Positions 4,995-20,427 of a stretch of DNA of 64,000 bases are shown here, one piece after another. Every line of letters starts with the position of its first letter. The first letter of the stretch is position 1. The DNA lies in the IMG/VR virus record IMGVR_UViG_3300021335_000004, one strand, 5' to 3'. The DNA comes from a virus. The notes under the pieces were generated by a model. It was given only the letters and a program-made list of their open reading frames with translations, searched no databases and had not been told where the DNA came from. The translations under genes and the position numbers were made by a program.

Positions 4995-5510
4995 CTACCG
5001 ATAAAACAAATGGTCTCCAATAATCGTAGTTAATTTTTTTTCGTCTGCCCATTCAGGAGATACATAGTAAGCATGATAATGAATAGACCCTTCTGTAAAG
5101 TCGTATCTTTCGGTATCTAAAAATTCTTCTATATGTATCTTTATATCTAGCCAAATTTCTCGATTGTTAATAACGTCTTTTACTCCATCACAATACCAAG
5201 AAAACTGACAACGATTTTTCACGGGATAAAAAATACGTTCATCATCTGTTAGTGTTTTGTCCTTGCGTGTTTTCCAGCTTTCCCTTACAGGTCCTTCTAA
5301 TACTACTTCGCAAATTGTGTTAGGGTATTTTTCGCTTTTTACTCTATTTAATACAACTAAAACTATAGCAATTTGTCCTGCCAAAGATTGAGTATTAGCC
5401 TCAAAATAAGCATTAGTTGTTAAACAGTCTAAGTCATTACTTAGTAATTCCATCCCTTTTGCTTCTCCAATCGTAAGTAGGAGAAGAAGCGCGCTCAATA
5501 TCTTCTTCAA
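4995..5510 (-). CDS. SleB-like cell wall hydrolase (Hydrolase_2)
   Basis: CL..N.YFEA, V.NRV, CQFSW, YHAYYVSPEW and IGDHLFY motifs; N-terminal signal-like segment. Confidence 0.88.
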   Translation of the reverse strand: MKKILSALLLLLTIGEAKGMELLSNDLDCLTTNAYFEANTQSLAGQIAIVLVVLNRVKSEKYPNTICEVVLEGPVRESWKTRKDKTLTDDERIFYPVKNRCQFSWYCDGVKDVINNREIWLDIKIHIEEFLDTERYDFTEGSIHYHAYYVSPEWADEKKLTTIIGDHLFYR

Positions 5511-6243
5511 TACATTTGTCTCCTTGCTGAACTTCTAGTATAAATAATGGCTCAGTAGTAGAGTAATTACATAATTGATGCCAACTTCCTTGATCAATAT
5601 CAATTGTTTCATGTTGTTTTACTATTTGACCAGGTACTACTCGTGTATTATACACATACGCAGTTCCTTTAACTACATACCAATGTTCAGACCTATGCTC
5701 ATGTTTCTGAAAAGATAATTCTTTATCTGGTAAAACATGAAGTTCTTTTACTTTAACAGACCCGTAATCTTTTAACACAGTCCATGTTCCCCACTCACGA
5801 ACACAATGCTCGCCTGCCCAATTAGACAATAAATGAGATGAAGAAGAGGTTTTTTGTCCTCCTACGTTCCATAGTAGCTCGATATCATTAACTAAACAAT
5901 AATCAACTTCTGGAACATTAGTATTAGACCTATCCCCACCGTTAGCAAAATATAAAAGATTATCCTCTATACCATATATTTCTTTAAACTCTTTTAGCCC
6001 ACTTAGAGCAGTACCATCACTGTCACTCATCACAATAACTTCACAAACTCCTTTGATAGAGTTCATAATATATTGTCTTTGATCCTCATCCATAAAAGGT
6101 TTGCCCTTTTTGTTAGCAAGCCAACTATCAGAATTAAGTAAAATAACTACATTACCTAATTCTGCTGCTTCCTCAATCATCTCTAAATGACCTTTGTGAA
6201 CAGGGTCAAAACCCCCGCTTACTGCTACATACTTATTTGTCAT
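5437..6243 (-). CDS. Cytidylyltransferase-like (RfaE-II/HldC-like) domain fused to a mannose-6-phosphate isomerase type II cupin
   Basis: SGGFDPVHKGH (HxGH) and FANGGDR; C-terminal REWG...LSFQKHEHRSEHW cupin. Confidence 0.8.
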   Translation of the reverse strand: MTNKYVAVSGGFDPVHKGHLEMIEEAAELGNVVILLNSDSWLANKKGKPFMDEDQRQYIMNSIKGVCEVIVMSDSDGTALSGLKEFKEIYGIEDNLLYFANGGDRSNTNVPEVDYCLVNDIELLWNVGGQKTSSSSHLLSNWAGEHCVREWGTWTVLKDYGSVKVKELHVLPDKELSFQKHEHRSEHWYVVKGTAYVYNTRVVPGQIVKQHETIDIDQGSWHQLCNYSTTEPLFILEVQQGDKCIEEDIERASSPTYDWRSKRDGITK

Positions 6244-6261: not shown

Positions 6262-6335
6262 TGGAGCGGCATAGGAGAATCGAACTCCTCTACATAGCTT
6301 GGAAGGCTAGTGCATTACCACTATGCTAATGCCGC
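6262..6335 (-). tRNA. tRNA-Gly(TCC)
   Basis: Cloverleaf GCGGCAT/ATGCCGC, anticodon loop CT-TCC-AA, GTTCGATTC T-loop, encoded CCA. Confidence 0.95.
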
Positions 6336-6337
6336 AT

Positions 6338-6414
6338 TGGTGACTTCGGAAGGATTCGAACCCTCGACCCACAGCTTAGAAGGCTGTTGCTCTATCCAGC
6401 TGAGCTACGAAGCC
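6338..6414 (-). tRNA. tRNA-Arg(TCT)
   Basis: GGCTTCG/CGAAGTC acceptor, ACAGC-CT-TCT-AA-GCTGT anticodon arm, GTTCGAATC T-loop, encoded CCA. Confidence 0.95.
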
Positions 6415-6934: not shown

Positions 6935-7483
6935 CTAAACTCTACTAGCAGCCACCATATTTGTTAATTCACTAGTGATAGCCATATTCTTATGCTTTTT
7001 ATACTTTGTTTCCATTAACTCTTGGTTTGGTAAAAAGGGATTAAGAAATACCTGTCTCAGTTCAGAATAAAACATCTTAAACTCTTTTCCATGAGGCTTA
7101 AGTCTGCTCATTTTATGAAAATATTTATGATTATATTGAGCCGCGTGAGCCATCTCATGAGTTATATGATGTAATAGTTTGTGTTCTAGATTGTTAGTAA
7201 AAAAACCACCAATAACTTTATCAGAGTCAAAAGACGCATACTCATAAACACGTCGAGGAGCATCGTAGTTTTCATCAGGAATAGCAACACTCATGGCTAT
7301 GGAAACAATTGGTCCTCCATTACGCCAACCACCCCTAGAACAACGACGACGTTTAGACCAATCAAGTTTTGCCTCTATTAAAGCAAATTTCTTTGCACTA
7401 GATATTTTACAATGAGTATGTAACCATTTTTCGATATCATTAATATAATCATCTGCTAATTCATTCCAATATCTACGATTCAT
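6935..7483 (-). CDS. SprT-like zinc metalloprotease-domain protein
   Basis: HEMAH followed by PHGKEF. Confidence 0.6.
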   Translation of the reverse strand: MNRRYWNELADDYINDIEKWLHTHCKISSAKKFALIEAKLDWSKRRRCSRGGWRNGGPIVSIAMSVAIPDENYDAPRRVYEYASFDSDKVIGGFFTNNLEHKLLHHITHEMAHAAQYNHKYFHKMSRLKPHGKEFKMFYSELRQVFLNPFLPNQELMETKYKKHKNMAITSELTNMVAASRV

Positions 7484-7698
7484 TTACCTATATCCTTTAT
7501 GTTGCTCATGGTTACAATAGTATAAGCTCCTTTATTAAACGCAGGAGCAGTAGGAAAAATACGCTTTTCTTCACCACAATCTAGACACGTATTGTAGCCT
7601 AATTGTTTTCTCTTTATAGAGAAGTCGTCTCCGCAGTCTTCACAAATTGCAGCAAAATTTTTCTTGCTAAAATTCTTATTTAGTGTTATCATAGTCAT
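7480..7698 (-). CDS. DksA/TraR-type C4 zinc-finger small protein
   Basis: CEDCG...R...CLDC; start uncertain. Confidence 0.55.
   Translation of the reverse strand: MTMITLNKNFSKKNFAAICEDCGDDFSIKRKQLGYNTCLDCGEEKRIFPTAPAFNKGAYTIVTMSNIKDIGK
7664..7692 (+). promoter_or_regulatory. Sigma70-type promoter of the radical SAM operon (predicted leaderless)
   Basis: TTGCTA(7664-7669)-N17-TATCAT(7687-7692) with TGn extension; ATG 7699 lies 7 nt downstream. Confidence 0.6.
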
Positions 7699-8292
7699 AT
7701 GAAATTATCCGAACATATACAAAAGTTTTCACAACAGTTATACGAAAAATATAAAAAAGTAAACCCAATAGAAATTATTACTAATTATCATTTTATAAGA
7801 GATGGTAAAGTATTTTACATTGAAAATGCTGAAGAAAATATGGTGTTTCCAAACTCTTATAAAAATACTATATCAAAAATAAAAGCAAAGAGCAAGAACA
7901 CATTTAAAGTAGAAGCCTTTGAAAAGTATGATGAGTTTATATCAGATATATGTAATTATCAAAATAAAAAAGAATATATAGACTGTCATCTGTATTGGGG
8001 AAAAGTAGGAAAATCTAGTTTTATAAGTCATGTAGATCCTTATGATGTAGTAATTTTATTACTATCGGGAAATAAAAAAATGATATTTCCTGATACTAAC
8101 GAAGAAATCATACTAAATCCAGGAGAGATTGTGTATATACCAGGTAATAAAGCACATTATGCAGACAATTTAACAGAAAATATTTCTTTAAGCTTTGGTA
8201 TTAGAAGATATTATAAAGAAATAGATTTAAAGTTACAAACATTACAGATGGAAAAAGATGAAGAATATAACAGTATATCTGAAAACAACTGA
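7699..8292 (+). CDS. JmjC/cupin Fe(II)/2OG oxygenase
   Basis: HVDPYDV...GNKK...LNPGEIVYIPGNKAH; HxD...H facial triad. Confidence 0.8.
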   Translation: MKLSEHIQKFSQQLYEKYKKVNPIEIITNYHFIRDGKVFYIENAEENMVFPNSYKNTISKIKAKSKNTFKVEAFEKYDEFISDICNYQNKKEYIDCHLYWGKVGKSSFISHVDPYDVVILLLSGNKKMIFPDTNEEIILNPGEIVYIPGNKAHYADNLTENISLSFGIRRYYKEIDLKLQTLQMEKDEEYNSISENN

Positions 8293-9295
8293 AACTTGTC
8301 AATTAAATTGTAAACATTGTTTTACCAATGGTATAAATGGTAAAAAAATATTTTTTAATTCAGAAAAAACTCTTAGTTGGATGAAAAAATTAAGAGAGTT
8401 CTATAAAGATAGTCATATTCATTTTGAGTTTCACGGTGGAGAACCTTTTTTAGCTCCTCTATCTGATATGAGGTATATAGTTAATCAAACAAGAGACTGG
8501 GAGAATATTTCTTTTGGTATTACTAGTAATCTTACTTTTAAACTAACTGAAGACAAAATAAATTTTATTATGGAAGATTTAAAAGGTGTCATAGGAACAT
8601 CTTGGGACATGAGTATTAGATTTTCTAACGAAAAACAAAAAGCATTATGGGAAGAAAATGTACTAAGATTAAAAAATTTGGGAGCTTACATAACACTATT
8701 TGTCAGCGTTACAAAAGAGCTTTGTAACACAGATACTCAAGAAATTATAGAGTATATAAACACTCTCAATGTTGATATTGTAGATTTTGAAAGATTAACG
8801 GGACACGGTAACGCACAACTGCACCCAGAAATATTCCCAACTAATAAAGAACAAAGTGATTGGTTTCTAAAATTATATAAAAACAATAGTAAAAAAAATT
8901 GGGAAGATTCTTTTATTAAATCAATGGTTAATACTAGAGTTAATGGTAATCAAACCGCAACTTTTTGCAGAGATTGTGAACAAAAACTATTTACCATTAA
9001 TGCAGATGGTAGTATTAGTGGTTGTCCTAACTCAGCACCTGAAGAAGTATATGGAACAATAGAAGAAGAAATTTGGGAACTTATAGTTAACCCAAAACGA
9101 ATGAAAATAATTGCTTGTGAAGCAGCACGAGATCCTAGATGTTATGAATGTGATGTTTTTGATATTTGCGGAAGTGGTTGTCATCAGCTTGAGTGGGACG
9201 AAACACATTGTCCATCGCCAAAAGAGCTATTTAGATTATTAAAAAACACCCCTATAAAGGAGTTAAAACAAGGAGAGTATTATGTCAGCAATTAA
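8258..9295 (+). CDS. Radical SAM/SPASM enzyme 1
   Basis: CQLNCKHC, FHGGEP, SPASM cysteines CRDC...GCP...CYECDVFDICGSGC...C. Confidence 0.92.
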   Translation: MKNITVYLKTTETCQLNCKHCFTNGINGKKIFFNSEKTLSWMKKLREFYKDSHIHFEFHGGEPFLAPLSDMRYIVNQTRDWENISFGITSNLTFKLTEDKINFIMEDLKGVIGTSWDMSIRFSNEKQKALWEENVLRLKNLGAYITLFVSVTKELCNTDTQEIIEYINTLNVDIVDFERLTGHGNAQLHPEIFPTNKEQSDWFLKLYKNNSKKNWEDSFIKSMVNTRVNGNQTATFCRDCEQKLFTINADGSISGCPNSAPEEVYGTIEEEIWELIVNPKRMKIIACEAARDPRCYECDVFDICGSGCHQLEWDETHCPSPKELFRLLKNTPIKELKQGEYYVSN

Positions 9296-9881
9296 TACAG
9301 GAGATGAGGTAAGTAAAACCGCTGTAGTAAATAGATTTAATGAAGTTATGAGAAGTCAGATTAATCCAATAATTAATGTAGGAACTTCAACATCTTTTAG
9401 TAGTGGTAATTATAATCAATTTACTAACGTGCCTAGTGGAGGAGTTCCTTTTTCAAGAATCGGAACCCCTACAGTAGCACCCGCTGTTACTAGTGGATTA
9501 GGCAGTATTGTAGATGCAGCAGATTTAGCTACATATTTAAGAAATTTAACTCGTGATTATAGTGGAGTTAGAATAACAACATACAGATATAGGTTTAATA
9601 GAACAGGCTATCCTAGCGGTAACGGAAACAAAGTTATATCTTATAGAACTACTGATTATGTACATTATGATGGAGATGTTTATAAACAAACAGTTACAGA
9701 CAATAGTGCTACGTATGACATTGAAGAAGGTGACTTAATAGATGCATCAGATTTTGAAAGTTATATAGCAGATTTATATAATCAGTGGAATTCATTAAAA
9801 AATAATAGAGTAACAGTATTTGTAGATGCTTGTCACTCAAGTTGCCATAGTAATTGTCACGGTTCAAGGGGAAGACGATGA
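9282..9881 (+). CDS. Virion-like protein with C-terminal (CHxx)3-RGRR tail; putative substrate of the operon
   Basis: Ends ACHSSCHSNCHGSRGRR; the only Cys residues are in the tail; internal G-x-I/L-V/I-DA-x-D repeats; T/S/G/N-rich. Confidence 0.7.
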   Translation: MSAINTGDEVSKTAVVNRFNEVMRSQINPIINVGTSTSFSSGNYNQFTNVPSGGVPFSRIGTPTVAPAVTSGLGSIVDAADLATYLRNLTRDYSGVRITTYRYRFNRTGYPSGNGNKVISYRTTDYVHYDGDVYKQTVTDNSATYDIEEGDLIDASDFESYIADLYNQWNSLKNNRVTVFVDACHSSCHSNCHGSRGRR

Positions 9882-10576
9882 GAATAATTAGAACTAAAGC
9901 GCCTATTGATGTAGAGTACTTACAAGAATATTTTTCTTCTGAAGAAGAGATTATTTTTGATATAATGTATTACGACTCTGATATAAAAGGAAAAACACTA
10001 CTTAATTATGTATCTAATTTAGATATTAATTTTGAAATAAATCTATATAAAACCTCACAAGAAGAGAGGTATGATTTATTGAGTAACTATTTTACTACTA
10101 ATTTATTAGTAAATTGTAAACAACTTGAACTAGCTTTGACATATATCGTATTAAAATACAATAATCGTTCAGTCGATGACCTATACTCTTTTACGCTGTT
10201 AAAAGAAGAATATGTAGATAAATTTATTGAAGAACATAGAATACAGTTACTAAATACCACAGATTTTTTAGAATCATTACCAATTACAACACTGTCTTTT
10301 GTAGACTCTTTAAAAGATTTTGTTAATCAAGAATTAAAAAATTATGAAATAATAGATGATCCTGAAATTTTAGGTAAAAACGTAATTAATCTAATTAACA
10401 ATCCTTTTATCTTTAAAATATACGAAACTTCTGGTAGTAGAAAAAGATACTTTAAACACTACGCTGAAGAATATATCTATGACGAATCTAACTTATATGG
10501 TTGGATGGAAAAATATAATGTACCATTACTAGTTTTTGTTTCGGGGATTGCTTCTGGTGTTTTGCCTAGTAAATAA
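9878..10576 (+). CDS. Hypothetical protein in radical SAM operon
   Basis: ATG 9878 overlaps the TGA of the previous gene (ATGA); no recognised motif. Confidence 0.7.
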   Translation: MRIIRTKAPIDVEYLQEYFSSEEEIIFDIMYYDSDIKGKTLLNYVSNLDINFEINLYKTSQEERYDLLSNYFTTNLLVNCKQLELALTYIVLKYNNRSVDDLYSFTLLKEEYVDKFIEEHRIQLLNTTDFLESLPITTLSFVDSLKDFVNQELKNYEIIDDPEILGKNVINLINNPFIFKIYETSGSRKRYFKHYAEEYIYDESNLYGWMEKYNVPLLVFVSGIASGVLPSK

Positions 10577-11693
10577 AATATATTTAGATTATAATTTTTG
10601 TTATGATGCGGAAACACCTAAAATATTAGTAGGGTATAATGATCCTATACCTAATACTTGGAATTATTTTTCGGATGCTGATAAATTATTTGCTAGTAAT
10701 ACTTTAAAGAATATAAATAAAGATACTGAAATAGTAATTCTTGCTAAACAAAATGAGTATGTAAAAGTACTCACTACCTATTTAAAATCTATACTACCTA
10801 ACCACTCAGTCGAGTCTTTGTATCATTTCTATAAATTATTATTACAAAAACATATTTATCTTCATGGTAAATCATGTTTAGCACACGACAACGGCTCTGT
10901 AAATCTAAACTCGCCTTGGAACTCATTATCTTTATTAAATGTTGAAGAATTTAAAAATATATATAATCAATGTAATAAACATCATTTAGATGATTTTTAT
11001 ATAAAAGGTGCAGGAATAGAGTTACAATTAGTTAGTTATTTAGCTAATACTAAATATACACATAAAGACATTTTATATAGTAAATTATATACAATAATCG
11101 CTGATACTGTTTTAAACGAAATTACCTATTGGAAAATGAATGTCATGTGTCAGCTCTTTGAATTAGGAGATTTGATAGAAGGAATTGATTATGGGTCAAA
11201 ATTGTATGAATCTGCAACATATAAAGATTTAAACTTACCAGAAGAATATAGCTGGCTTATGGATGAAAAAATAAAAGCTTATCCAGAACTAGAGTATATG
11301 TTAAAAAACTATGATTTAAAAAATATCTTTAAACTTTATCGTAAATCAGTAATGAAATACGGGCATAATGGGTTTTTTGATAGTGAACAGCTAATGGAGC
11401 TTTTTGTAAGTGGAGATATTAGTTTAAGAAAAATAGTTGATATAGATATTAATACTATATATGCTGGGGGTAATATAGGAGAATATCAACACCAAGATAA
11501 AACTACACATTATTTATTGAGATACTTTTACTTATTATGTAAAGAAAAACGCTATGATAAGTTGTCTGAGTATTCTTTAGAAGAAAAAACTACAAAATTT
11601 AAACCTTTTATAAACTTAAAAAAGAGAAACACTAAAAAAGTAAAAGAATGGGCTCTAAAAGATCACCACAGTTTTAGAGAAGATTATGTATAA
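10536..11693 (+). CDS. Hypothetical protein in radical SAM operon (probable start GTG 10557)
   Basis: 385-aa ORF overlapping both neighbours. Confidence 0.7.
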   Translation: MFRGLLLVFCLVNKIYLDYNFCYDAETPKILVGYNDPIPNTWNYFSDADKLFASNTLKNINKDTEIVILAKQNEYVKVLTTYLKSILPNHSVESLYHFYKLLLQKHIYLHGKSCLAHDNGSVNLNSPWNSLSLLNVEEFKNIYNQCNKHHLDDFYIKGAGIELQLVSYLANTKYTHKDILYSKLYTIIADTVLNEITYWKMNVMCQLFELGDLIEGIDYGSKLYESATYKDLNLPEEYSWLMDEKIKAYPELEYMLKNYDLKNIFKLYRKSVMKYGHNGFFDSEQLMELFVSGDISLRKIVDIDINTIYAGGNIGEYQHQDKTTHYLLRYFYLLCKEKRYDKLSEYSLEEKTTKFKPFINLKKRNTKKVKEWALKDHHSFREDYV

Positions 11694-12675
11694 CACAGTT
11701 ATAGATAAAAAAGCATCTACTCTAGGAGAGGTTATTGTAACACTCTTTGAACACTGTAATCTTGCGTGTAGTTTTTGTTCTCAAAATCATAGTTCATTTA
11801 AGGGTGTGGAATCTATCCCAGAAAAATACTTTGCGATAAAAAGCGTCTACGAAGACTTACGCTCACAAAATAAAGAACAATTTTCATTTCATTTTATGGG
11901 CGGAGAGATTTTGAGTGATCAGATTTCAAATCAAATTTTGAATAAAATTGAAGATTTAATTCTTAGATGTCAGCAATCATTTGAAAACAGTGAATTTCTA
12001 ATAACCTCCAATATGGTATGGAGTAACAGAGATAGAGTAAAACAAATACTAGATAGATTGAATATCAAACTAGCAGTTAGTTACGACCCTGCAGGCCGCT
12101 TTAATACTAAGCAATTTGAACAGTTTATGGGTAATGTTAAATACTTCAAAGAGTATATCACTACGGTAAATATAATATTAACTGCTCCTAACATTTATAA
12201 ATTCTTATCTGATGAAATAATAGGTTTTGATTATCTGTACGAACATTTTAATGTATACTTTGACTATTATACTCCTGAAAAAAACGCTAGTATAAACTGT
12301 CCTACAGACGTAGAACTATTAAACATATTTAAGTATCTGTCTATTAATTATCCTAAAGTAGCACCAATAAACAAGTATTTATCTGGAGAAACTAAGAAAA
12401 ATTTAACTTGTCAAAGAACAAAAGTAATAGCTGCTGATGGAGAAATAGGTCACTGTAATTTACTAGTTGGAGGCAATTATAGAGCATTAGCCCATGATAG
12501 TAGAGATAAAATGGAAGCTAAATGGATAGAGGGCTTTAACTGCTTAATGTGTGACCATTTTAGTAGGTGTGGATTAGGTTGCTTTCAAGAAAACCATATT
12601 TTACCGGAAAAAAGTACTATGGAACATTGCTGGATTAAAGATTATTGGGAGTGGTTAGATGGAACTTATAATTAA
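11686..12675 (+). CDS. Radical SAM/SPASM-like enzyme 2
   Basis: CNLACSFC, FMGGE, C-terminal CQ...HC...CLMCDHFSRCGLGC...HC. Confidence 0.9.
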   Translation: MYNTVIDKKASTLGEVIVTLFEHCNLACSFCSQNHSSFKGVESIPEKYFAIKSVYEDLRSQNKEQFSFHFMGGEILSDQISNQILNKIEDLILRCQQSFENSEFLITSNMVWSNRDRVKQILDRLNIKLAVSYDPAGRFNTKQFEQFMGNVKYFKEYITTVNIILTAPNIYKFLSDEIIGFDYLYEHFNVYFDYYTPEKNASINCPTDVELLNIFKYLSINYPKVAPINKYLSGETKKNLTCQRTKVIAADGEIGHCNLLVGGNYRALAHDSRDKMEAKWIEGFNCLMCDHFSRCGLGCFQENHILPEKSTMEHCWIKDYWEWLDGTYN

Positions 12676-13732
12676 ACCAACAGAGCGTTGTAATTTTAAG
12701 TGTACTTTCTGTTCTAGTACAAAAATTGCAGATTCTAAATCTGTTGAATTGGAACACGAAAAAATATTTACTTTTTTAAAAAGGTTTCCACACACTAATA
12801 CTATTATTGTGAATGGTGGGGATCCTTTGATGATGAAACCTAGTTATTATTGGAAAATAATTAAATATTTAGAAGATAATAATTTGGATACTACAATATC
12901 TTTGACTACTAACTTGTGGCCTTTTTACACTAAACCATCTAAATGGTTATCTCTTTTTCAGCATCCTAGAGTAGGAGTTTGTACTTCTTTTCAATATGGA
13001 GGAGGTAGATTAAAAGGAGATTTTACAGAATTTAGTGAAAAAGATTTTTGGAAAGTATCTGATAAAATGTTAGATCTTGTAGGTTATAGACCTGATTTTA
13101 TTTCTGTAATCACAAAAGAAAATGAAGACAGAGCAATAGATAACGTACTCTTAGCTAAAGAAATGGGAGTAGTGTGTAAACTAAATTATGCTGTCGCAAG
13201 CGGTCCAGAAATTAAATTTCTTAATGGAATTAAAATGGGATTAGAAAACTATACTTATCTTTTAGCAGATATATATGAAATCTATCTTAAAATATATAAA
13301 CAAGGATTAGCCGATTGGGAGTATAATACTACTCAGTTATTAAAAAGATTTTCTTCTAATACTACTTGTCCACAAAACCGAAATTGTGATTCAAATATCA
13401 GAAACTTAAATCCAGGAGGTGACTATTATTCTTGTGGAGCTTTTGGAGATGATAAAGAATATGAAATAGATTTTGATAAAGAAATGAATCAGAGGAAAAT
13501 AGAAACTCCTCTACAAAACTCTATTGAATTATTATCACTAAAGCAAGCGTGTTTTACTTGTCCTATGTTTAAAATTTGCAATGGTTGTAAAAAAACTATC
13601 AGCGATATAAAAAGACTAAACTTAGTAGAGACGCACTGTAAAAAAATGAAGAAACTAGCACCTGAAATAATAGAAATATGTAACCTAGAAGATAAACTAA
13701 CGGAGTATATAGATGAATCAGTATACGCATAG
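12659..13732 (+). CDS. Radical SAM/SPASM enzyme 3
   Basis: CNFKCTFC, NGGDP, CPQNRNC...YSC...CFTCPMFKICNGC...HC. Confidence 0.92.
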   Translation: MELIIKPTERCNFKCTFCSSTKIADSKSVELEHEKIFTFLKRFPHTNTIIVNGGDPLMMKPSYYWKIIKYLEDNNLDTTISLTTNLWPFYTKPSKWLSLFQHPRVGVCTSFQYGGGRLKGDFTEFSEKDFWKVSDKMLDLVGYRPDFISVITKENEDRAIDNVLLAKEMGVVCKLNYAVASGPEIKFLNGIKMGLENYTYLLADIYEIYLKIYKQGLADWEYNTTQLLKRFSSNTTCPQNRNCDSNIRNLNPGGDYYSCGAFGDDKEYEIDFDKEMNQRKIETPLQNSIELLSLKQACFTCPMFKICNGCKKTISDIKRLNLVETHCKKMKKLAPEIIEICNLEDKLTEYIDESVYA

Positions 13733-14510
13733 AAAACTATGGCCTACACCTGTTCTACTAGGAACAGTAGATAAACAATTAGCCAAGGATTTATTTAATT
13801 ATATACTGAGCAAGTACCATAATCCTGATGAAAAAACAGAAGTATTTAACCTGTTTTCTATCGGTGAACCTCTTTTGGATAATTTATACAAAAATTATAT
13901 TGTTCCTGCTACAAAAGAATATATTAAAAATAATTTATTTCAGTCTAACCATTATGAAATAAAATCCTATGCTTGGGCCCATGTATTACCACAAGGACAA
14001 AATGTGGGTATTCATAATCATCCTAACAATCATATAAGTGGCACTATATGGTTAAGCGATCATGATAGTCATCTTTTAATGGTTGATCCAAAAGGTAATT
14101 CTAACATGATGGATTTTGGATATCTAGATTTAGAAATGCTAACTAAAAAAGGTATGACTGTTGGAAATGATGAAATAAGACATAATCATACTTCTAGATA
14201 TAATGAGTATGGTAGACAGATGAATAATAGTACTCTAGATTTTTCTGGATTATTTGGTGACTATGTTGATACATTTGATAAACCAACTCATTCTGTAAAC
14301 CCAACCAACATCACTATTAAACCAGAACTTGGTAAATTTATACTATTTCCCTCATGGGTTTGGCACGAAGTAGAACCTAATCAATCTAAACTGCCTAGGA
14401 TAAGTATATCTTGGGATACTAGAATTACTCCAAAGATAAAAAAAGAGCACAATATTCATTATGAACAAGACATTAGAGTATTAGGAGATGTTCTTGATGT
14501 ACAAAGTTGA
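13713..14510 (+). CDS. 2OG-Fe(II) oxygenase (phage TIGR02466-like)
   Basis: HNHPNNHISG...FPSWVWHEV...RISISW. Confidence 0.82.
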   Translation: MNQYTHRKLWPTPVLLGTVDKQLAKDLFNYILSKYHNPDEKTEVFNLFSIGEPLLDNLYKNYIVPATKEYIKNNLFQSNHYEIKSYAWAHVLPQGQNVGIHNHPNNHISGTIWLSDHDSHLLMVDPKGNSNMMDFGYLDLEMLTKKGMTVGNDEIRHNHTSRYNEYGRQMNNSTLDFSGLFGDYVDTFDKPTHSVNPTNITIKPELGKFILFPSWVWHEVEPNQSKLPRISISWDTRITPKIKKEHNIHYEQDIRVLGDVLDVQS

Positions 14511-14913
14511 AAAAGGTGAACTACACCACTTACCAATACTAATAGCTTTATCCTATAATATGACAGAAGAAGAACGTGATGAAAAAGATGATTTTATCGA
14601 GTTAATAAAAGAACAAAGAGTACATCTACTATATTTAAAAGATAAACCTATTGGATATTATACAGTAGTATCTATTGAGAGAGGAGAGTATCTTGAAACT
14701 ATCTTAATAGATAAAAAGTATCAAGGTAAGGGTGCTATTAATAAATTAGGCGAATATGCAGTAAAGTCAAAAAATGGAAAGCCTCTTTGGGGGTTGAGCC
14801 GTCACAGAAGAGTAGATATGTTATTAAAAAAATTTGGATTTGAACCAAAAGAGTATGAAATTATTAAAGGAGTTAGTTATAGATGGTGGATAAACCGTTT
14901 TCAGTCTCAATAA
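14488..14913 (+). CDS. GNAT family acetyltransferase
   Basis: IDKKYQGKG motif A; KKFGF near the C-terminus. Confidence 0.7.
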   Translation: MFLMYKVEKGELHHLPILIALSYNMTEEERDEKDDFIELIKEQRVHLLYLKDKPIGYYTVVSIERGEYLETILIDKKYQGKGAINKLGEYAVKSKNGKPLWGLSRHRRVDMLLKKFGFEPKEYEIIKGVSYRWWINRFQSQ

Positions 14914-15797
14914 ATCCTAGTTACTTTTGTAATTTTAGGTGTAATTTTTGTTATTTAACTCCTGAACAACTTGGAGATCAGAAAAAAATTGACCCTAAAA
15001 AATTAGATAAGTTGTTATCAAACATACCTAAAATAGATCATATAGACTTATATGGAGGAGAAATTGGAGCGCTCAAGAAAGACTATTACTATGAAATCAA
15101 GTCTGTTATACGTAAACACTATAATGATTACATCAATATTAATACTAATTTTTCTATGCTTGACGACAGATTCTTCGAGGATGATATCACTCTTTCCGTC
15201 TCATATGATTTTTCCGCAAGAGAAAAATCAAAGTTAGTATTTCAAAATATGCTGATGAGTCCAAAACCTATTTCCGTATTAATTCTTGCTTCTGAAGAAG
15301 TATTAAAATTAGATATTAATTCTATGATAAAACAATTAAATATGTGTAAATCAATTATATCTGTAGAAATAAAACCTTATAGTACTAATCAAGCTAATAA
15401 ACACGTTGTTACCCATAAAGATTTTGAAAACTTTGTTATCAAATGGATTGAGAGTCCAGTAAAAAAACGCTTTGAATTTCAAAACCTAAACAGAATAAAG
15501 AGAAGTGTAAGAAAAGAATATAATGCTTTTTCTGACGACCACATCTACATTACTCCAAATGGTAAATATGCTGTATTAGCTTTTGACAAAGAAGATAGTG
15601 AGTATTTTTTAGAATTTACTAACTACTCTAGTTTTGAACAATGGGCTTGGACAGAAAAGAAAACTCTTTCTACTATCTGTAGCGGTTGTTATTGGAAAGG
15701 ACATTGTTTAACTGAACATTATAGACATGTAAAAGATTTAAGAAATAGTTGTAATGGTTATATAAATTTATTAAGTAGATATAGTAATGCGTTTTAG
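14883..15797 (+). CDS. Radical SAM enzyme 4 (reduced auxiliary domain)
   Basis: CNFRCNFC, LYGGE, C-terminal CSGCYWKGHCLTEH...C. Confidence 0.9.
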   Translation: MVDKPFSVSINPSYFCNFRCNFCYLTPEQLGDQKKIDPKKLDKLLSNIPKIDHIDLYGGEIGALKKDYYYEIKSVIRKHYNDYININTNFSMLDDRFFEDDITLSVSYDFSAREKSKLVFQNMLMSPKPISVLILASEEVLKLDINSMIKQLNMCKSIISVEIKPYSTNQANKHVVTHKDFENFVIKWIESPVKKRFEFQNLNRIKRSVRKEYNAFSDDHIYITPNGKYAVLAFDKEDSEYFLEFTNYSSFEQWAWTEKKTLSTICSGCYWKGHCLTEHYRHVKDLRNSCNGYINLLSRYSNAF

Positions 15798-16443
15798 TTT
15801 TTCAGATCATAGCGATAACTTTGATGAGCATATTAATAAAAGTATTATTTCGTATAATAACTTAGTAGATATGATTATTACTGTATCTGGATTTTTTATA
15901 CAAGATAATACAACAGTATATGATTTAGGATGTTCTACTGGTAAAATTTTAAGGAAAATAAAAAAAGCGTCACACGCTAATAATGTTTCGTATATCGGAA
16001 TAGATAATGAAACAGCTTTTTCCCCATACTGGAAAGAAAAAGACATAGAGTTTAAAATTGAAGATGTGAGAAAACTAAAGTTTGATAGTGATGTTTCTTT
16101 AGCTATCTCTACCTTCACTCTTCAATTTTTACCTACTATTGATAGAGTAAAATTATTAAAAAACATATATGATTCTTTAATACCAAACGGAGCATTAATA
16201 CTTTGTGAAAAAACATATTCTAATGATTCTATGTTACAAGAAGTATTTACTTTTGCTAACTATGATTATAAAGCTAAATTTTTTAGATACGATGATATAA
16301 TGTTTAAAGAAAAGGAGTTAAGAGCCTCTATGAATATTAGATCTTGGGACGCTATTTTACAAGAAGTAGAAAAAATAGGATTTAAAAAGTATGAAGTATT
16401 CTGGAAGGCGTATAATTTTGTAGGAGTCATATTGGTAAAATGA
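15787..16443 (+). CDS. CmoA-like class I SAM-dependent methyltransferase
   Basis: FDEHINKSI..Y, VYDLGCSTG and FTLQFL match CmoA-family motifs. Confidence 0.75.
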   Translation: MRFSFSDHSDNFDEHINKSIISYNNLVDMIITVSGFFIQDNTTVYDLGCSTGKILRKIKKASHANNVSYIGIDNETAFSPYWKEKDIEFKIEDVRKLKFDSDVSLAISTFTLQFLPTIDRVKLLKNIYDSLIPNGALILCEKTYSNDSMLQEVFTFANYDYKAKFFRYDDIMFKEKELRASMNIRSWDAILQEVEKIGFKKYEVFWKAYNFVGVILVK

Positions 16444-16952
16444 TTACTTATAAACAAGTAATAAAAAAAGGTTTTGCTTTTGAGAGTATTATAATACCTA
16501 AAAATATAAAAACAGAACTAAAAGCATTAACTTTTTATCCAAATGAGGACAAAGATTTAGGGAAAGAAGTAGGATGGTCTACACTAGGTATGCCTACTAA
16601 TCTTAATGAGTTCTTTATCGAACAATTATATGCAAAAGTAGACCCATACTTACAGAAACTTTTAGATAAGCTAGAAACTTTTGAAGCGTATAAAACAGAT
16701 AAAAATGAGTATGTAGAATTACATACAGATAATGCTTTTGGTGGGTTAGTTCAAATTATGATTTACTATATTGAAAAAGATATGAAAGGTAGGGACTTTT
16801 TATATGGAACAAAAAATGATATTAAAAAAATAACTCCCTACACAGGATTAGTAATTATATGTGATCAAATAAATAAAGAATGGTTGCACGGAACAACTCC
16901 TTTATTGAGTGACACTTTTAATTTATGTATTACAGGAATCACACCTAGATGA
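16440..16952 (+). CDS. 2OG-Fe(II) oxygenase-like protein
   Basis: LHTD...WLHG facial triad in a DSBH-like pattern. Confidence 0.6.
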   Translation: MITYKQVIKKGFAFESIIIPKNIKTELKALTFYPNEDKDLGKEVGWSTLGMPTNLNEFFIEQLYAKVDPYLQKLLDKLETFEAYKTDKNEYVELHTDNAFGGLVQIMIYYIEKDMKGRDFLYGTKNDIKKITPYTGLVIICDQINKEWLHGTTPLLSDTFNLCITGITPR

Positions 16953-17632
16953 ATAAAAAAGAATTTTACAGAAAAGAACATTATGAAAAAAAGAACTGGC
17001 TTCATAAAAACGGAAGAGTTAATGCCACGGTTGCAGGTAATAACTGGGTTGGTGTATCTGTCTCTCCTTATATGAAAGATTTTAAATATCAAGTAGATCC
17101 TGGTATTTGGCCTCTAGTAGAAATACTTAATAAAAAAGGGTATTTAACTTGTTCTTCTTGCGAAGGGCATGATTGGATGGAAGAATCATTTGTTGTTGTT
17201 TGCTTTGGTTCTAAAGAATCGAGAGATGCTTTTGCTGAACAAGTTGTTAAAGCAAAGCTGCCGCAGTATAGAATTTTTTATCAAGAATCACAGACTAACA
17301 TTAACCTATACGATCCTTTTAATGATTATCATGAAATAATGGATGACCCAACTATGGATGAAACTCAAAACTGGTTTAAGATTGAAGATAAATTATACTT
17401 CACAAAAATAGAAGAAGAGATACCAGAAGAAATTATTGAAAAAGAAACAGAAAATTGGAATTACTGTTTTGGTAGAAAGTATAAAAGATGGTACTATTGC
17501 AGACTACTAATAGGAGGAGCTGTGTTGAACGGTAAAAACCCAGTAAGCATAGTAGTTCATTGGACTCGATATTTCTGGATTAATAGGCTAGCAAAGTTTA
17601 TAAAAGAAAACGTGGAGCAAGGATATGACTGA
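16949..17632 (+). CDS. TYW3-like-fold protein
   Basis: VDPGIWPLVEILNKKGYLTCSSCEGH resembles the TYW3 N-terminal D..I..L...N....T.SSC.G motif. Confidence 0.5.
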   Translation: MNKKEFYRKEHYEKKNWLHKNGRVNATVAGNNWVGVSVSPYMKDFKYQVDPGIWPLVEILNKKGYLTCSSCEGHDWMEESFVVVCFGSKESRDAFAEQVVKAKLPQYRIFYQESQTNINLYDPFNDYHEIMDDPTMDETQNWFKIEDKLYFTKIEEEIPEEIIEKETENWNYCFGRKYKRWYYCRLLIGGAVLNGKNPVSIVVHWTRYFWINRLAKFIKENVEQGYD

Positions 17633-18269
17633 TAAGTTTGTAGAAATTCAATATGACTCTGACAATATCGTTGAATATGTGTATAAAAGCAATTCAAATG
17701 AAAAAGATATACTAGAACTAAAAAATAAATTGTTTATAAATTTTAGTGAAGAAATAACTAAAGATTTAACTTTTTCTCACGATATGATTAGTTATCATCC
17801 AAAAAATAATACTACATATAAAGAAGATTCAATAATTATAGTATTCAGTGAAAAATGTCCTTATTACTTAAGAGAAGAGTTTAACATTCCTTTTTTTAAT
17901 TCATTAGATTTTTATGCAATAAAATATTATTTAACTAGTAAAAAAAGAATACTAAAAACTTACGATGCCGATATGTATAAATATGAAATACCTCAACTTC
18001 CCCATATGTCTGCTATAGGTAATCAATTTGGGGTTGGAAGAACACACGCATTAGACAAAGAATATAGAGATGTATACTTTTTTAACTCAAATGATATGAT
18101 GGTTAATTATTTTTATGGAGACTTAGTTCCTAAAATTGGTGAACCATATAAAAATCCCGCAACTAAATGTTACGGGATTACTTATGAAGAAGGAGAAAAA
18201 GATATTCTTAAAGTAAAAAGATATTTATTTCCCTTTCATTTAGAAATGACAGATTTATCTTGTTTATAA
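17625..18269 (+). CDS. Hypothetical protein, last gene of the operon
   Basis: 214-aa ORF; overlaps the end of convergent thyX by 6 bp (TTATAA). Confidence 0.65.
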   Translation: MTDKFVEIQYDSDNIVEYVYKSNSNEKDILELKNKLFINFSEEITKDLTFSHDMISYHPKNNTTYKEDSIIIVFSEKCPYYLREEFNIPFFNSLDFYAIKYYLTSKKRILKTYDADMYKYEIPQLPHMSAIGNQFGVGRTHALDKEYRDVYFFNSNDMMVNYFYGDLVPKIGEPYKNPATKCYGITYEEGEKDILKVKRYLFPFHLEMTDLSCL

Positions 18270-18920
18270 AAATTCAGCTAGAGGAAACACTTCTACAATA
18301 ACTTTAGAACAAGCATGTGCAATTTCCATATGTTCTTTTTGTGTACCATTTGCACCACGTAAATCAATATAATGAATCCAACTACGAAGCGTACCATTCA
18401 TATACAAACGTGTTTTAGTAAGACCTTCAGGTAATACAACACGGGCTTGTTCTTTAGCTATACCGTTTTCAATAGCCCACTGATAAGCTTTATTAGCTGC
18501 TACGATAACATGATCTTGTTGGATTAACCACTGATTCTTTAAAGTTTCATCATCTGTTTCTATTGAATTTTGTCTGTTTTTACTATCTTGAAGTCTGGCT
18601 TCACGTCTTACAAACTGCTCTCCCATTTCTTTAGGCTCTGCATAACGCTGTGAAAATTCTTGAAAAGAAAAAGAGCGGTGACGCACAATTTGATGAGCAA
18701 TATCACGAGTAGTATTAATTTCTAAACACACATTTACCATTTCAAGGGGCGACCAGTGTTGATTATTAATTAAATATTTAATTAATTTAGAACTAGTCTC
18801 ACTATTCATTTGATTATTAGGATTACTTACTCTAGCACAATATGCTACTAATTCTTGCATATCTTCGCCCACATATAAGTCTTTTGGAGGTTGACTATAA
18901 CTAATTAGTCTTACATTCAT
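18264..18920 (-). CDS. thyX: Flavin-dependent thymidylate synthase
   Basis: HWSPLE and RHRSFSFQEFSQRY ThyX signature. Confidence 0.95.
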   Translation of the reverse strand: MNVRLISYSQPPKDLYVGEDMQELVAYCARVSNPNNQMNSETSSKLIKYLINNQHWSPLEMVNVCLEINTTRDIAHQIVRHRSFSFQEFSQRYAEPKEMGEQFVRREARLQDSKNRQNSIETDDETLKNQWLIQQDHVIVAANKAYQWAIENGIAKEQARVVLPEGLTKTRLYMNGTLRSWIHYIDLRGANGTQKEHMEIAHACSKVIVEVFPLAEFL

Positions 18921-19508: not shown

Positions 19509-19703
19509 CTAAGAAGCAAGATGATTATTACTTTTATTAAATACAGAACGATAAGGAATATTATAAAGCTGTGATCGTTGTTCAAATAAGTTAGAACACA
19601 TTTCACAATTTAAAATATTTGTAGGGAAGAATGACCCCTTCCCTACAATAGTATTTTGATTGGTGCCGCAATGCGGGCATTTAACTAGAGCTACGTAATA
19701 CAT
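19509..19703 (-). CDS. Small zinc-ribbon protein
   Basis: CPHC...CEMC. Confidence 0.45.
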   Translation of the reverse strand: MYYVALVKCPHCGTNQNTIVGKGSFFPTNILNCEMCSNLFEQRSQLYNIPYRSVFNKSNNHLAS

Positions 19704-20427
19704 TTTCTATCTTGCTGTGGTAAAGACTAATATTATGGTCAAAAATACCGTCAAACCATTGCATTTTTTGTAAAGCACGATATCTTCCTCTCCACTGGTC
19801 TTTAACTCTTTGCCAGTAAGTTAATTTTCTTATATTTCCATAATAATTTATATAATGTAGATTACCATAATGTTTATATCCTAGCAAGAAAAAAGGTACT
19901 TTAGTAACAACATCGTTATTGTTTACAAACCTATGGTGTTCAAATGTTTGTGCTTTACACCAAGACCAACTACCTACACGAGGTGATCCAAACGTATAAA
20001 CAATACTATGTTTTATTCTAGAACCTGCGAGAGTAGCTAAACCTCCTCCCAAAGAATGTCCACACACATAAATATGTCCTTGTGTTGGAAGTTTTTTTAA
20101 CCATCCTTCAATGTTTTTCCATACTAGGTCTAAAGCATCTTTAAAACCTGCGTGAACTCTACCTGTTGTTTCAGAACGTCTTTTATATGCTTTTAAATCT
20201 GCCTTAATATCCTTAAACTGGGTAGGTTCCGTACCTCTGAAAACAATATATTTATTACCTCTTTGAGTAAAGCAAACAGCTTGGGTTCCTTCTTTGGAAA
20301 TAAAAACAAAGTTATTGATATCTTCAACAGATCCCAAAAACCTGCTTCTAATTTTAGATTCATTTGTATATACTATGTCAGAAAGTTTTGAGCAAAACTC
20401 TGCTTGTTCTATAATTTGATTCCTCAT
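19681..20427 (-). CDS. Lipase class 3 family protein
   Basis: VFRGT, VHAGF, GHSLGG, TFGSPRVG, DVVTKVP. Confidence 0.9.
   Translation of the reverse strand: MRNQIIEQAEFCSKLSDIVYTNESKIRSRFLGSVEDINNFVFISKEGTQAVCFTQRGNKYIVFRGTEPTQFKDIKADLKAYKRRSETTGRVHAGFKDALDLVWKNIEGWLKKLPTQGHIYVCGHSLGGGLATLAGSRIKHSIVYTFGSPRVGSWSWCKAQTFEHHRFVNNNDVVTKVPFFLLGYKHYGNLHYINYYGNIRKLTYWQRVKDQWRGRYRALQKMQWFDGIFDHNISLYHSKIENVLRSSS

Follow-up and report, generated by a model that had tools for sequence, protein, structure and literature searches.

A block of 14 overlapping genes in the viral genome IMGVR_UViG_3300021335_000004 probably forms a dedicated maturation system for the disordered C-terminal tail of a virion protein. 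The window analyzed was the whole 64,000-nucleotide stretch of this record; the block comprises 14 plus-strand ORFs at positions 7699 to 18269, with coordinates identical to those in the initial annotation. Neighboring ORFs overlap at every junction, by 4 to 41 nt, and both flanks lie on the minus strand (an ORF at 7480-7698 and thyX at 18264-18920), which bears out the overlapping operon, opposed to both flanks, that had been described. The GC content of the block is 27 to 30%, versus 33 to 42% in the flanks. Two tRNA genes are found at a distance of 1.3 kb, and tail-fiber or baseplate genes surround the cassette in this genome. The source is a large marine phage. A promoter-like site ends 7 nt ahead of the first gene, within the divergent upstream ORF; matches to the promoter consensus are no commoner in the region than in shuffled sequence. 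The features are, in order:

7664..7692, plus strand: promoter-like site, TTGCTA-17-TATCAT with an extended -10 TG, a consensus match only
7699..8292, plus strand: g1, cupin/JmjC-type Fe(II)/2-oxoglutarate oxygenase, core gene (PF08007 JmjC_2, phrog_8014)
8258..9295, plus strand: g2, radical SAM enzyme with a full SPASM domain and no N-terminal RRE, core gene (C14, C18, C21, and 8 conserved C-terminal Cys)
9282..9881, plus strand: g3, TAIL, 199 residues, folded alpha/beta body with a disordered C terminus, presumed substrate and virion protein
9854..10576, plus strand: g4, core protein (phrog_20767), likely start ATG at 9878
10536..11693, plus strand: g5, recurrent accessory gene (phrog_36207), present too in RSF1/RSL2-type jumbo phages
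11686..12675, plus strand: g6, radical SAM enzyme with SPASM, core gene (C24, C28, C31, and 7 conserved C-terminal Cys)
12659..13732, plus strand: g7, radical SAM enzyme with SPASM, core gene (C11, C15, C18, and 8 conserved C-terminal Cys)
13713..14510, plus strand: g8, 2OG-Fe(II) oxygenase of the TIGR02466/PF13759 type, recurrent accessory gene (PF13759, 68.4 bits; phrog_81)
14488..14913, plus strand: g9, probable GNAT acetyltransferase, close relatives only (sub-threshold matches to three GNAT Pfam families)
14883..15797, plus strand: g10, radical SAM enzyme with a reduced auxiliary-cluster domain (4 Cys and a His), core gene (Pfam Radical_SAM, 31 bits)
15787..16443, plus strand: g11, CmoA-like class I SAM-dependent enzyme, close relatives only (TIGR00740, phrog_4752)
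16440..16952, plus strand: g12, 170 residues, candidate oxygenase in the initial annotation only, close relatives only
16949..17632, plus strand: g13, conserved S-C-x-G-H motif and weak TYW3 resemblance, recurrent accessory gene (PF02676, 15 bits, E 0.015)
17625..18269, plus strand: g14, recurrent accessory gene, also in a Halobacteriovoraceae cluster

TAIL lies directly after g2, the first radical SAM gene, and has the Cys-His repeats and RGRR end first noted for it. Its C-terminal sequence is CHSSCHSNCHGSRGRR, of which the last 16 residues (codons 9831-9878) read CHSS-CHSN-CHGS-RGRR, with the general form (C-H-x-S)x3-R-G-R-R. The repeats are encoded by differing codons (TGT CAC TCA AGT, TGC CAT AGT AAT, and TGT CAC GGT TCA), and from amino acid frequencies we estimate the probability that a random protein end would match the motif at ∼1e-16. 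The motif is invariant in homologues as distant as 17 to 27% identity; across 82 aligned homologues, where mean column identity is 14%, the C, H, S, and R positions of the tail do not vary, and the Ser at repeat position 4 and the terminal RGRR are strictly conserved. A search of viromes for the C-terminal Cys/His repeat, suggested at the outset, found the exact motif at the end of proteins of 124 to 364 residues in at least 119 IMG/VR contigs, and in cultured jumbo phages and Bdellovibrionota chromosomes as well. A profile search with TAIL gave 902 clusters; of the 149 best representatives in this family, 123 carry the exact motif, and the others have near variants. Judged from these alignments, the tail is under extreme selection. 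In the AF2 model (mean pLDDT 79.9), the tail emerges from the last strand and its disorder is reflected in a pLDDT of ∼50 for the final 20 residues. Throughout the family the body is conserved as a folded domain; a BFVD fold search matched it to Atu_ph07 gp170 with a probability of 1.00, and the tail is common to both proteins.

TAIL-type proteins occur in the cultured jumbo phages Atu_ph07 (gp170) and RSL2 (ORF068), which keep the same gene order (radical SAM identity of 45% and 43%, respectively) and whose cassettes likewise sit amid tail-fiber or baseplate genes. The description of the system as phage encoded holds for these genomes and the phage contigs, but it is not confined to phages: it is also found in Bdellovibrionota chromosomes, in two of which the cassette adjoins fiber-like Peptidase_S74 genes. 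Of the 50 loci where TAIL is flanked by at least 2.5 kb on each side, 49 have a radical SAM gene within 6 kb, and usually 3 or 4 such genes are present. Thus the proposal that the tailed protein and the radical SAM enzymes form one conserved system, to which TAIL homologues without such neighbors would run counter, stands. The 14-gene assembly line originally envisaged is reduced to a conserved core of seven, g1, g2, TAIL, g4, and the three further radical SAM genes g6, g7, and g10, with g5, g8, g13, and g14 recurring in distant loci. The GNAT gene g9 (5 closely related loci), the CmoA-like gene g11, and g12 are restricted to close relatives and could be cargo unconnected with the system. A short form of the locus consists of two ∼126-residue TAIL genes followed by 3 to 6 radical SAM genes; no g1, g2, or g4 homologues were detectable in short-form loci, and these three genes are therefore not universally required.

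The motifs confirm four CxxxCxxC radical SAM enzymes, three of the SPASM type with 7 or 8 C-terminal Cys (g2, g6, and g7). In all four the CxxxCxxC motif is inside the first 31 residues (span, 11 to 31), so there is no space for an N-terminal RRE. g2 scores 31.6 bits for TIGR04085 (SPASM), where the cut-off is 27, and matches phrog_1802 at 1e-58; in 68 of 87 loci of the long form, it immediately precedes TAIL. g6 (phrog_1802, 1.7e-40) occurs in 68 loci, and g7 matches Pfam Radical_SAM at 38.5 bits and phrog_1802 at 1.9e-55. Conservation across 42 homologues of g10 extends to C16, C20, C23, C266, C269, C275, C290, and H279. HMM classification placed none of the four in a characterized non-peptide family: matches to NCBIfam enzyme families were far under the cut-offs, the closest being the peptide or protein maturases PapB, anSME, DynA, YhhB, and HxsB/C, while matches to viperin and QueE were weak and limited to the radical SAM core.

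Of the oxygenases predicted initially, the JmjC protein g1 was borne out at 43.4 bits against a PF08007 cut-off of 22, with H111, D113, H153, and K126 conserved across 62 homologues; it was found in 67 of 126 loci, a set that includes many truncated ones. g8, found in 19 loci including jumbo phages, was upheld as a 2OG-FeII_Oxy_5 enzyme, whereas the third candidate, g12, gave no match in Pfam, NCBIfam, or PHROGs. The assignment of g9 as a GNAT finds agreement in three Pfam families, none over threshold. g11 (4 loci) is CmoA-like over its full length at 125 bits, under the 193-bit equivalog cut-off, and matches at 1.5e-52 a PHROG family that carries the name tRNA methyltransferase. The TYW3-like assignment of g13 proved weak; S70, C71, G73, and H74 are conserved, and the gene is interleaved with radical SAM genes in 9 diverse loci. 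The three genes left without assignment, g4, g5, and g14, have no Pfam or NCBIfam family, and g4 and g5 match PHROG families without assigned function. The likely start codon of g4 (ATG at 9878) shares bases with the stop codon of TAIL in the sequence ATGA, and g4 immediately follows TAIL in 72 of 90 loci of the long form; its AF2 model (pLDDT 93.5) gave no convincing structural match in the PDB or Atlas.

Among characterized systems, the closest analogue is HXS, which acts against phages (HxsA/B/C/D; TIGR03976-03979; Li et al., Nat Commun 2026). In it, several radical SAM enzymes and a small helper mature a whole protein whose His-x-Ser units are arrayed in tandem within a basic context (modified motif, S-H-R-S-S), the product working outside the cytoplasm at the phage DNA entry step (PMC13128918). 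The TAIL repeats each contain H-x-S and are followed by RGRR. However, the cassette enzymes fall far under the HxsB and HxsC cut-offs, and neither HxsA nor HxsD has a match among the 14 genes; an invariant Cys opens each TAIL repeat, the repeats are at the extreme C terminus, TAIL lacks a peptidoglycan-binding domain and signal peptide, the cassette has at least four radical SAM enzymes and a JmjC oxygenase, and the carriers are phages and predatory bacteria, with the product in the virion. In the Crp system of Methanococcus voltae, the SPASM enzyme CrpC places thioether (ranthionine) cross-links on the product of the adjacent gene, CrpA, a full-size protein rich in Cys (PMC13692751). The comparison is at the generic radical SAM/SPASM level: CrpC carries an RRE and the Cys residues of CrpA are spread over its whole length (PMC13692751), whereas TAIL has only three Cys, all in the fixed 16-residue end, and its cassette encodes several paralogous enzymes. 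When the g2 family profile is compared with solved structures, the anaerobic sulfatase-maturating enzyme anSME (PDB 4k36/4k37; TIGR03942) ranks among the strongest matches over full length (4k37, E 1e-9); it too has an early CxxxCxxC without an N-terminal RRE and acts on a whole, folded protein, as proposed for g2. Its target, C-x-P/A-x-R, loosely resembles the last TAIL unit, C-H-G-S-R, but the Pro/Ala position is not conserved in TAIL, g2 reaches 47 bits where the cut-off is 349, and a sulfatase is absent from the cassette; formylglycine formation on TAIL is offered as a hypothesis. The SPASM maturases XyeB, YhhB, HtkB/HaaB, PapB, and NxxcB cross-link short repeated motifs, through His C2-to-C-beta bonds or Cys thioethers to residues 3 or 4 positions off (PMC11499958), and C-H-x-S is compatible with both geometries. 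Unlike in these systems, a leader peptide, an RRE, a protease, and an exporter are all missing from the cassette, its matches are all far under the family cut-offs, and the proposed substrate is the end of a folded protein of 124 to 364 residues.

Independent support for a virion protein rather than an exported peptide comes from Atu_ph07, whose gp170 was identified in purified virions by 8 peptides (35% coverage), while the neighboring enzymes were not; gp165, gp168, gp169, gp171, and gp172 were absent (PMC6102473 Table S5). Although gp170 is a 31.9-kDa protein, its signal peaks in gel fragment 1, the top fragment (PMC6102473 Table S5). No reducing agent is listed for the loading buffer (PMC6102473), so the high mass could reflect plain disulfide bonding or aggregation; moreover, since the source does not say which peptides were detected, the virion form may lack the tail.

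Disulfides would also suit a reading in which the tail is a metal- or Fe-S-binding structural motif without covalent change, TAIL serving as scaffold, carrier, or metallochaperone while the radical SAM enzymes have some other target, be it a different virion protein, a cofactor, or a small molecule. Three Cys and three His at period 4, on what would be adjacent helix faces, suit metal binding and could equally form such a site with no modification needed. We nevertheless regard this overall reading as unlikely, as it leaves unaccounted for the near-obligate linkage to 3 to 6 maturase-type SPASM enzymes in very different phages, the strict Ser at position 4, and the RGRR end; the presence of TAIL but not the enzymes in virions also speaks more for an enzyme-product relation than for an enzyme-cofactor one.

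Alternatively, TAIL could be a long precursor from which the modified 16-residue end is cleaved, as in a classical RiPP or PQQ/mycofactocin pathway, to free a peptide or small molecule acting on the host. Many RiPP clusters have the core region at the extreme C terminus beside SPASM enzymes, as here, and the accessory GNAT, methyltransferase-like, and oxygenase genes look like tailoring enzymes. Yet, as the initial annotation had said, no transporter, protease, or RRE family was matched in any of the 14 genes, nor in the conserved core; the body of TAIL is a folded domain and not a leader, and gp170 is a virion protein, all of which makes cleavage improbable. The last reading, modification of tRNA or phage DNA in a wybutosine- or cmo5U-like manner with TAIL incidental, draws on the CmoA match of g11 and the name of its PHROG, the TYW3 resemblance of g13, and the nearby tRNA genes. 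We give it very little credence: g11 and g13 are confined to 4 close and 9 loci, respectively, whereas TAIL and the radical SAM genes are the invariant unit; TYW1, TYW2, TYW4, and CmoB had no match, SPASM domains are typical of peptide and protein maturases, and the viperin and QueE similarities do not extend beyond the core.

Under the maturation model that we favor, we infer the modification of the tail, the roles of the individual enzymes, and the function of the product. The substrate would be the exposed 16-residue C terminus. The RRE-less enzymes g2, g6, g7, and g10 would take hydrogen atoms from tail residues and so alter its Cys, His, and Ser units covalently. The chemistry could involve thioether cross-links, His-to-C-beta cyclophanes, an HXS-like bridge, or oxidation of Cys to formylglycine. 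Precedents for radical SAM maturation of whole proteins are HxsA, with its HxS repeats (PMC13128918), and CrpA (PMC13692751). By analogy with ribosomal-oxygenase JmjC enzymes, which act on proteins, g1 would probably hydroxylate tail His or Arg; g4, translationally coupled to TAIL, may be an obligate helper, and g5, g8, g13, and g14 may be optional tailoring or helper genes. That phages infecting aerobic hosts would combine O2-dependent oxygenases and O2-sensitive radical SAM enzymes in a single pathway counts against this model.

Phage radical SAM gene clusters have been mentioned for FLC6 (PMC8066314), S13 (PMC11898562), pelagimyophages (PMC7029224), and marine EVGs (PMC5332604). These papers list the same cupin, "Fe-S oxidoreductase," radical SAM, and 2OG oxygenase genes, or radical SAM-rich cassettes, as annotation only, with no link to a Cys-His-tailed protein and no substrate proposed, and we found no paper that describes the TAIL/radical SAM system. 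The gene set is widespread and unstudied; most likely, the tail would be chemically rebuilt before TAIL joins the virus particle, where the protein would end up, probably in the baseplate or fiber region.

Fourteen ORFs, numbered g1 to g14 in order, occupy 7699-18269 on the plus strand; each stop/next-start junction overlaps by 4-41 nt, and both flanks run on the minus strand, as the initial annotation had described. GC content is 27-30% in the cassette vs 33-42% around it. The neighboring features are as follows.

1-4904 (-): two large tail-fiber-like genes, one of them the ORF at 2466-4904 (-), with matches to many PHROG tail-fiber families
5437-6243 (-): heptose kinase/adenylyltransferase-like gene
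6262-6414 (-): adjacent tRNA-Gly(UCC) and tRNA-Arg(UCU) genes
7480-7698 (-): 72-aa ORF abutting the start codon of g1
7664-7692: promoter-like site TTGCTA-17-TATCAT (consensus match only)
18264-18920 (-): thyX, converging on the operon and overlapping g14 by 6 nt at its stop
19681-20427 (-): esterase/lipase-like gene

The tail-fiber-like genes just upstream place the cassette in the fiber region, as in other carriers; the kinase-like and esterase-like genes lie on either side of it. Within the g14 coding sequence, at 18153-18179, lies a strong hairpin that resembles a minus-strand terminator. The family A DNA polymerase near the cassette is closest to those of T5-like phages and, with the tail-fiber proteins and the tRNAs, marks the source as a large tailed phage. 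The nearest record among those compared is a 64.5-kb IMG/VR contig scored as 32% complete by CheckV, which implies a genome of ∼200 kb.

The presumed substrate of the cassette enzymes is g3 (9282-9881, plus strand), here termed TAIL, a 199-aa protein with the C terminus C-H-S-S C-H-S-N C-H-G-S R-G-R-R. Codons differ between the three repeats, and the end is unchanged in 12 database homologues with identity as low as 27%. Searching with a degenerate DNA pattern that covers the tail and its stop codon found at least 119 IMG/VR contigs, and in 126 of 129 loci the pattern forms the terminus of a 124- to 364-aa ORF. The consensus is (C-H-x-S)x3-R-G-R-R, in which Ser occupies the fourth position of repeats 1 and 2 in 85-88% of sequences, although the pattern left that position free. 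When the TAIL profile was searched against 1.84 billion cluster representatives, 902 clusters matched at E ≤ 1e-3, most aligned across the whole body; among the best 149 of these, the exact tail is present in 123 and the others have near variants. In two rare variants (P0119 and P0141) the CHxS unit occurs four times and GDGPGxGGGV replaces the terminal RGRR. AlphaFold2 predicts a confident α/β body and a tail with pLDDT of ∼50. A Foldseek search of the PDB with the body gave nothing at E ≤ 1e-3, VIA-align matched no solved fold (top Z of 4.0, to generic helical bundles), and a profile search of the PDB gave a single match at E of 0.42. Among BFVD predicted viral structures, the body matched gp170 of the jumbo phage Atu_ph07 with a probability of 1.00.

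Family assignments for the remaining cassette genes are listed below (rSAM, radical SAM enzyme).

g1: JmjC_2 cupin with an H111-x-D113...H153 iron triad
g2, g6, g7: rSAM with CxxxCxxC at residues 11-31 and a SPASM pattern of 7-8 conserved C-terminal Cys
g8: 2OG oxygenase (PF13759 / TIGR02466)
g9: GNAT, with sub-threshold scores
g10: rSAM with only four C-terminal Cys, plus His
g11: CmoA-like, aligned full length
g13: match to a TYW3 motif only

Against the JmjC/ribosomal-oxygenase cupin family (PF08007), g1 scored 43.4 bits (gathering cut-off, 22), and its H111, D113, and H153 are kept in 62 homologues. The initial annotation had counted three SPASM-type enzymes among the four rSAMs, and the cysteines bear this out. 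g2, g6, and g7 conform to the SPASM definition (TIGR04085; PF04055: CxxxCxxC plus a C-terminal auxiliary-cluster domain of 7-8 Cys), with three core and 7-8 C-terminal Cys kept across 30-49 homologues; g2 scored 31.6 bits against TIGR04085 (cut-off, 27). Two further labels fared less well. The CmoA-like g11 is related to CmoA along its full length, but at 125 bits it falls below the 193.3 bits of the carboxy-SAM synthase equivalog TIGR00740, and the match of g13 to PF02676, behind its TYW3-like label, is confined to the motif region at 15.1 bits (E of 0.015; gathering score, 27 bits). No Pfam or NCBIfam family was found for g4, g5, g12, or g14; the PHROG families matched by g4 and g5 have no assigned function, and an ESM Atlas feature search with either gave nothing usable. 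The likely start codon of g4 and the TAIL stop codon overlap in the sequence ATGA. The g4 fold had no PDB match by Foldseek, a top VIA-align Z of 5.2 spanning 54 residues only, and TM values of ≤0.33, to partial β/α barrels, in an Atlas shape search; a profile search of the PDB found nothing. The proposal that g4 is a degenerate rSAM paralogue was rejected, with an hhalign probability of <1% against the g2 and g6 profiles.

We searched all ORFs of the collected loci by phmmer with the 14 window proteins as queries, and the system takes two forms. The long form, seen in 113 loci, runs g1 cupin, g2 rSAM, TAIL, g4, g6, g7, g10, with g8, g13, g5, or g14 interleaved in some loci; a g2-like gene lies directly upstream of TAIL in 68 of 87 long-form loci, and a g4-like gene directly downstream in 72 of 90. 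The short form (36 loci) consists of two tandem ∼126-aa TAIL genes and, after them, 3-6 rSAM genes so divergent that phmmer does not match them to the window enzymes; g1, g2, and g4 homologues were absent by phmmer. Its TAIL paralogues, for example those in loci L011, L033, L041, L070, L081, L089, and L090, have the same (CHxS)3RGRR end. The expected co-occurrence of tail and rSAM genes was borne out: of the 50 loci flanked on both sides by 2.5 kb or more, 49 have an rSAM gene no farther than 6 kb away, and the commonest number of such genes is four. The cassette had been described as a 14-gene assembly line; a seven-gene core and four recurrent accessory genes survive from that description, and the other three, g9, g11, and g12, are confined to close relatives of the window.

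None of the four rSAMs reaches the cut-off of a named NCBIfam family, and the top sub-threshold matches are to peptide or protein maturases: PapB, anSME, CbpB, DynA, YhhB, and HxsB/C. The best for g2 is the ranthipeptide maturase PapB (NF047865), at 52.9 bits vs 340 needed. Against the anaerobic sulfatase maturase family TIGR03942 g2 scored 47.3 bits vs 349, and no sulfatase gene is present; among solved structures, anSME is matched along its full length by the g2 family profile. The anSME substrate motif, C/S-x-P/A-x-R, is only loosely matched by the last repeat of TAIL, C-H-G-S-R. The viperin family pVip (NF038283, at least 180 bits) matched the four enzymes at 17-34 bits in the core only, and PADLOC found nothing beyond such weak viperin-core matches.

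The cassette also departs from a classical RiPP cluster, defined by a short leader-bearing precursor, an RRE/PqqD, and a leader protease and/or exporter, because the candidate substrate is a folded 199-aa protein and family searches of the 14 genes found no RRE, protease, or transporter, in keeping with an earlier remark to that effect. Since the rSAM motifs begin at residues 11-24, there is no room for an N-terminal RRE, as is also true of anSME. SPASM enzymes such as anSME and QhpD act on whole proteins; Crp is another (PMC13692751). The closest characterized analogue, judged by likeness, is the HXS antiphage system, an H-x-S triplet lying within each CHxS unit of TAIL. The family scores make the cassette an analogue of HXS and not a member: against the HxsB equivalog (TIGR03978, at least 370 bits) g2 scored 27.1 and g7 19.5 bits, against HxsC (TIGR03977, at least 267.9 bits) g7 reached 34.4 bits and g10 17.3, both confined to the N-terminal rSAM core, and HxsA (the His-Xaa-Ser repeat protein) and HxsD (TIGR03979, TIGR03976) had no match at E ≤ 0.01 among the 14 proteins. 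Literature searches on the tail and on phage SPASM systems turned up passing annotations only and no paper tying the genes to a tailed protein.

Neither megablast with the operon nor tblastn with the window TAIL found a match among GenBank phages, although the family occurs there; it was reached through the rSAM neighbor and translation of adjacent genes. Homologues of g2 with 40-46% identity are present in Agrobacterium phage Atu_ph07, Sinorhizobium phage Phosso, the Ralstonia/Burkholderia RSL2, RSF1, FLC, S13 group, and Pseudomonas phage pPa_SNUABM_DT01. The gene after the g2-like rSAM encodes the C terminus CHSSCHASCHNSRSRR in Atu_ph07 and CHSSCHTSCHGSRGRR in RSL2, and both clusters adjoin baseplate and virion genes. 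The Atu_ph07 protein, gp170 (L009:10059-10949), was detected in purified particles by ESI-MS/MS (31.89 kDa, 8 peptides, 35% coverage), and the cupin, g4-like, and rSAM proteins (gp165, gp168, gp169, gp171, and gp172) are absent from the same table (PMC6102473 Table S5). This supports a virion location, and with it the earlier idea of a virion protein in preference to an exported peptide. gp170 was present in gel fragments 1-9 and highest in fragment 1; other ∼30-kDa proteins peak in fragments 7-8, and 117- to 137-kDa proteins in 1-2 (PMC6102473). The fragment-1 peak hints at an SDS-stable high-mass form. Covalent cross-linking, disulfide bonding, or aggregation could account for it, and the published loading buffer recipe lists no reductant, which leaves room for the last two (PMC6102473).

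In species-representative genomes the tail DNA pattern occurs in 32 places, ∼20 of them in Bdellovibrionota metagenome-assembled genomes (MAGs), with the same TAIL, g4, and rSAM neighbors. Two clusters have flanks that are chromosomal housekeeping genes, and both include a fiber-like protein with a Peptidase_S74 (endosialidase/intramolecular chaperone) domain.

G002, Halobacteriovoraceae, 1.29-Mb contig: flanked by acyl-CoA dehydrogenase, serine dehydratase, Mrp/NUBPL, SLT, and YchF genes
G004, Pseudobdellovibrio, 299-kb contig: flanked by pilQ, pilM, and carAB
L162:15765-17006 (-): Peptidase_S74 fiber-like protein
L165:8597-9643 (+): Peptidase_S74 fiber-like protein

The Peptidase_S74 proteins suggest a link to surface fibers of the predatory bacteria. 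In one of the two, a weak prepilin N-methylation motif is also present. Some further MAG matches lie on ∼220-kb contigs that may be jumbo phages assigned to MAGs during binning. Contigs L155, L157, L132, and L138 are 219-228 kb long, the size of a jumbo phage.

The simplest account is that the cassette is a protein-maturation system with TAIL as its substrate and its tail as the putative site of modification, because an invariant exposed tail is nearly always accompanied by several SPASM enzymes of the peptide-maturase type and a protein-hydroxylase-type cupin, and because a TAIL homologue is found in virions and the enzymes are not. On ribosomal proteins, JmjC_2 enzymes act as Arg and His hydroxylases, and g1 would find both residues in the tail. 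Candidate reactions at C-H-x-S are a thioether between Cys and a residue 3-4 positions away, an anSME-like oxidation of Cys, a three-residue cyclophane joining His to a Cβ, which is characterized rSAM chemistry (PMC11499958), and the "+C -4H" change of HxsA, located there at S-H-R-S-S (PMC13128918).

Three other explanations would dispense with a matured virion protein. The tail might be a plain metal site, which we consider unlikely; its release as a peptide or cofactor is very unlikely, and an operon for nucleic-acid modification is highly improbable. None of them accounts for all three of the following: the linkage to rSAM genes, a conserved, folded body that is present in virions, and the restriction of the CmoA-like and TYW3-like genes to few loci. 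A bolder extension of protein maturation, tentative and on balance doubtful, is that a fiber- or baseplate-associated TAIL is common to phages and periplasm-invading predators, and that several rSAMs forge its tail into a basic "warhead" that is cross-linked and may bind metal or bear an aldehyde. The warhead would act in the victim envelope, perhaps locking the particle covalently to itself or its target or escorting DNA through the periplasm. If so, it would mirror the HXS defense effector on the offensive side, and would be the first instance in which a virus remodels its own structural protein by radical chemistry.

If the maturation account is right, this would be the first described rSAM battery used by viruses on their own virion protein. 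The TAIL family is large, at 902 clusters (50% identity), and takes in marine, soil, gut, and jumbo phages; its compact, fixed 16-residue motif would offer new rSAM chemistry that is easily assayed. The cultured carriers Atu_ph07, RSL2/RSF1, FLC6/FLC8, S13, and pPa_SNUABM_DT01 open the system to direct testing, and it raises the puzzle of how enzymes sensitive to oxygen can operate in phages whose hosts are aerobic. The presence of the cluster beside fiber-like genes in predators points to attack on Gram-negative envelopes, and the parallel with the HXS defense effector hints at chemistry common to both sides of the phage-host conflict.
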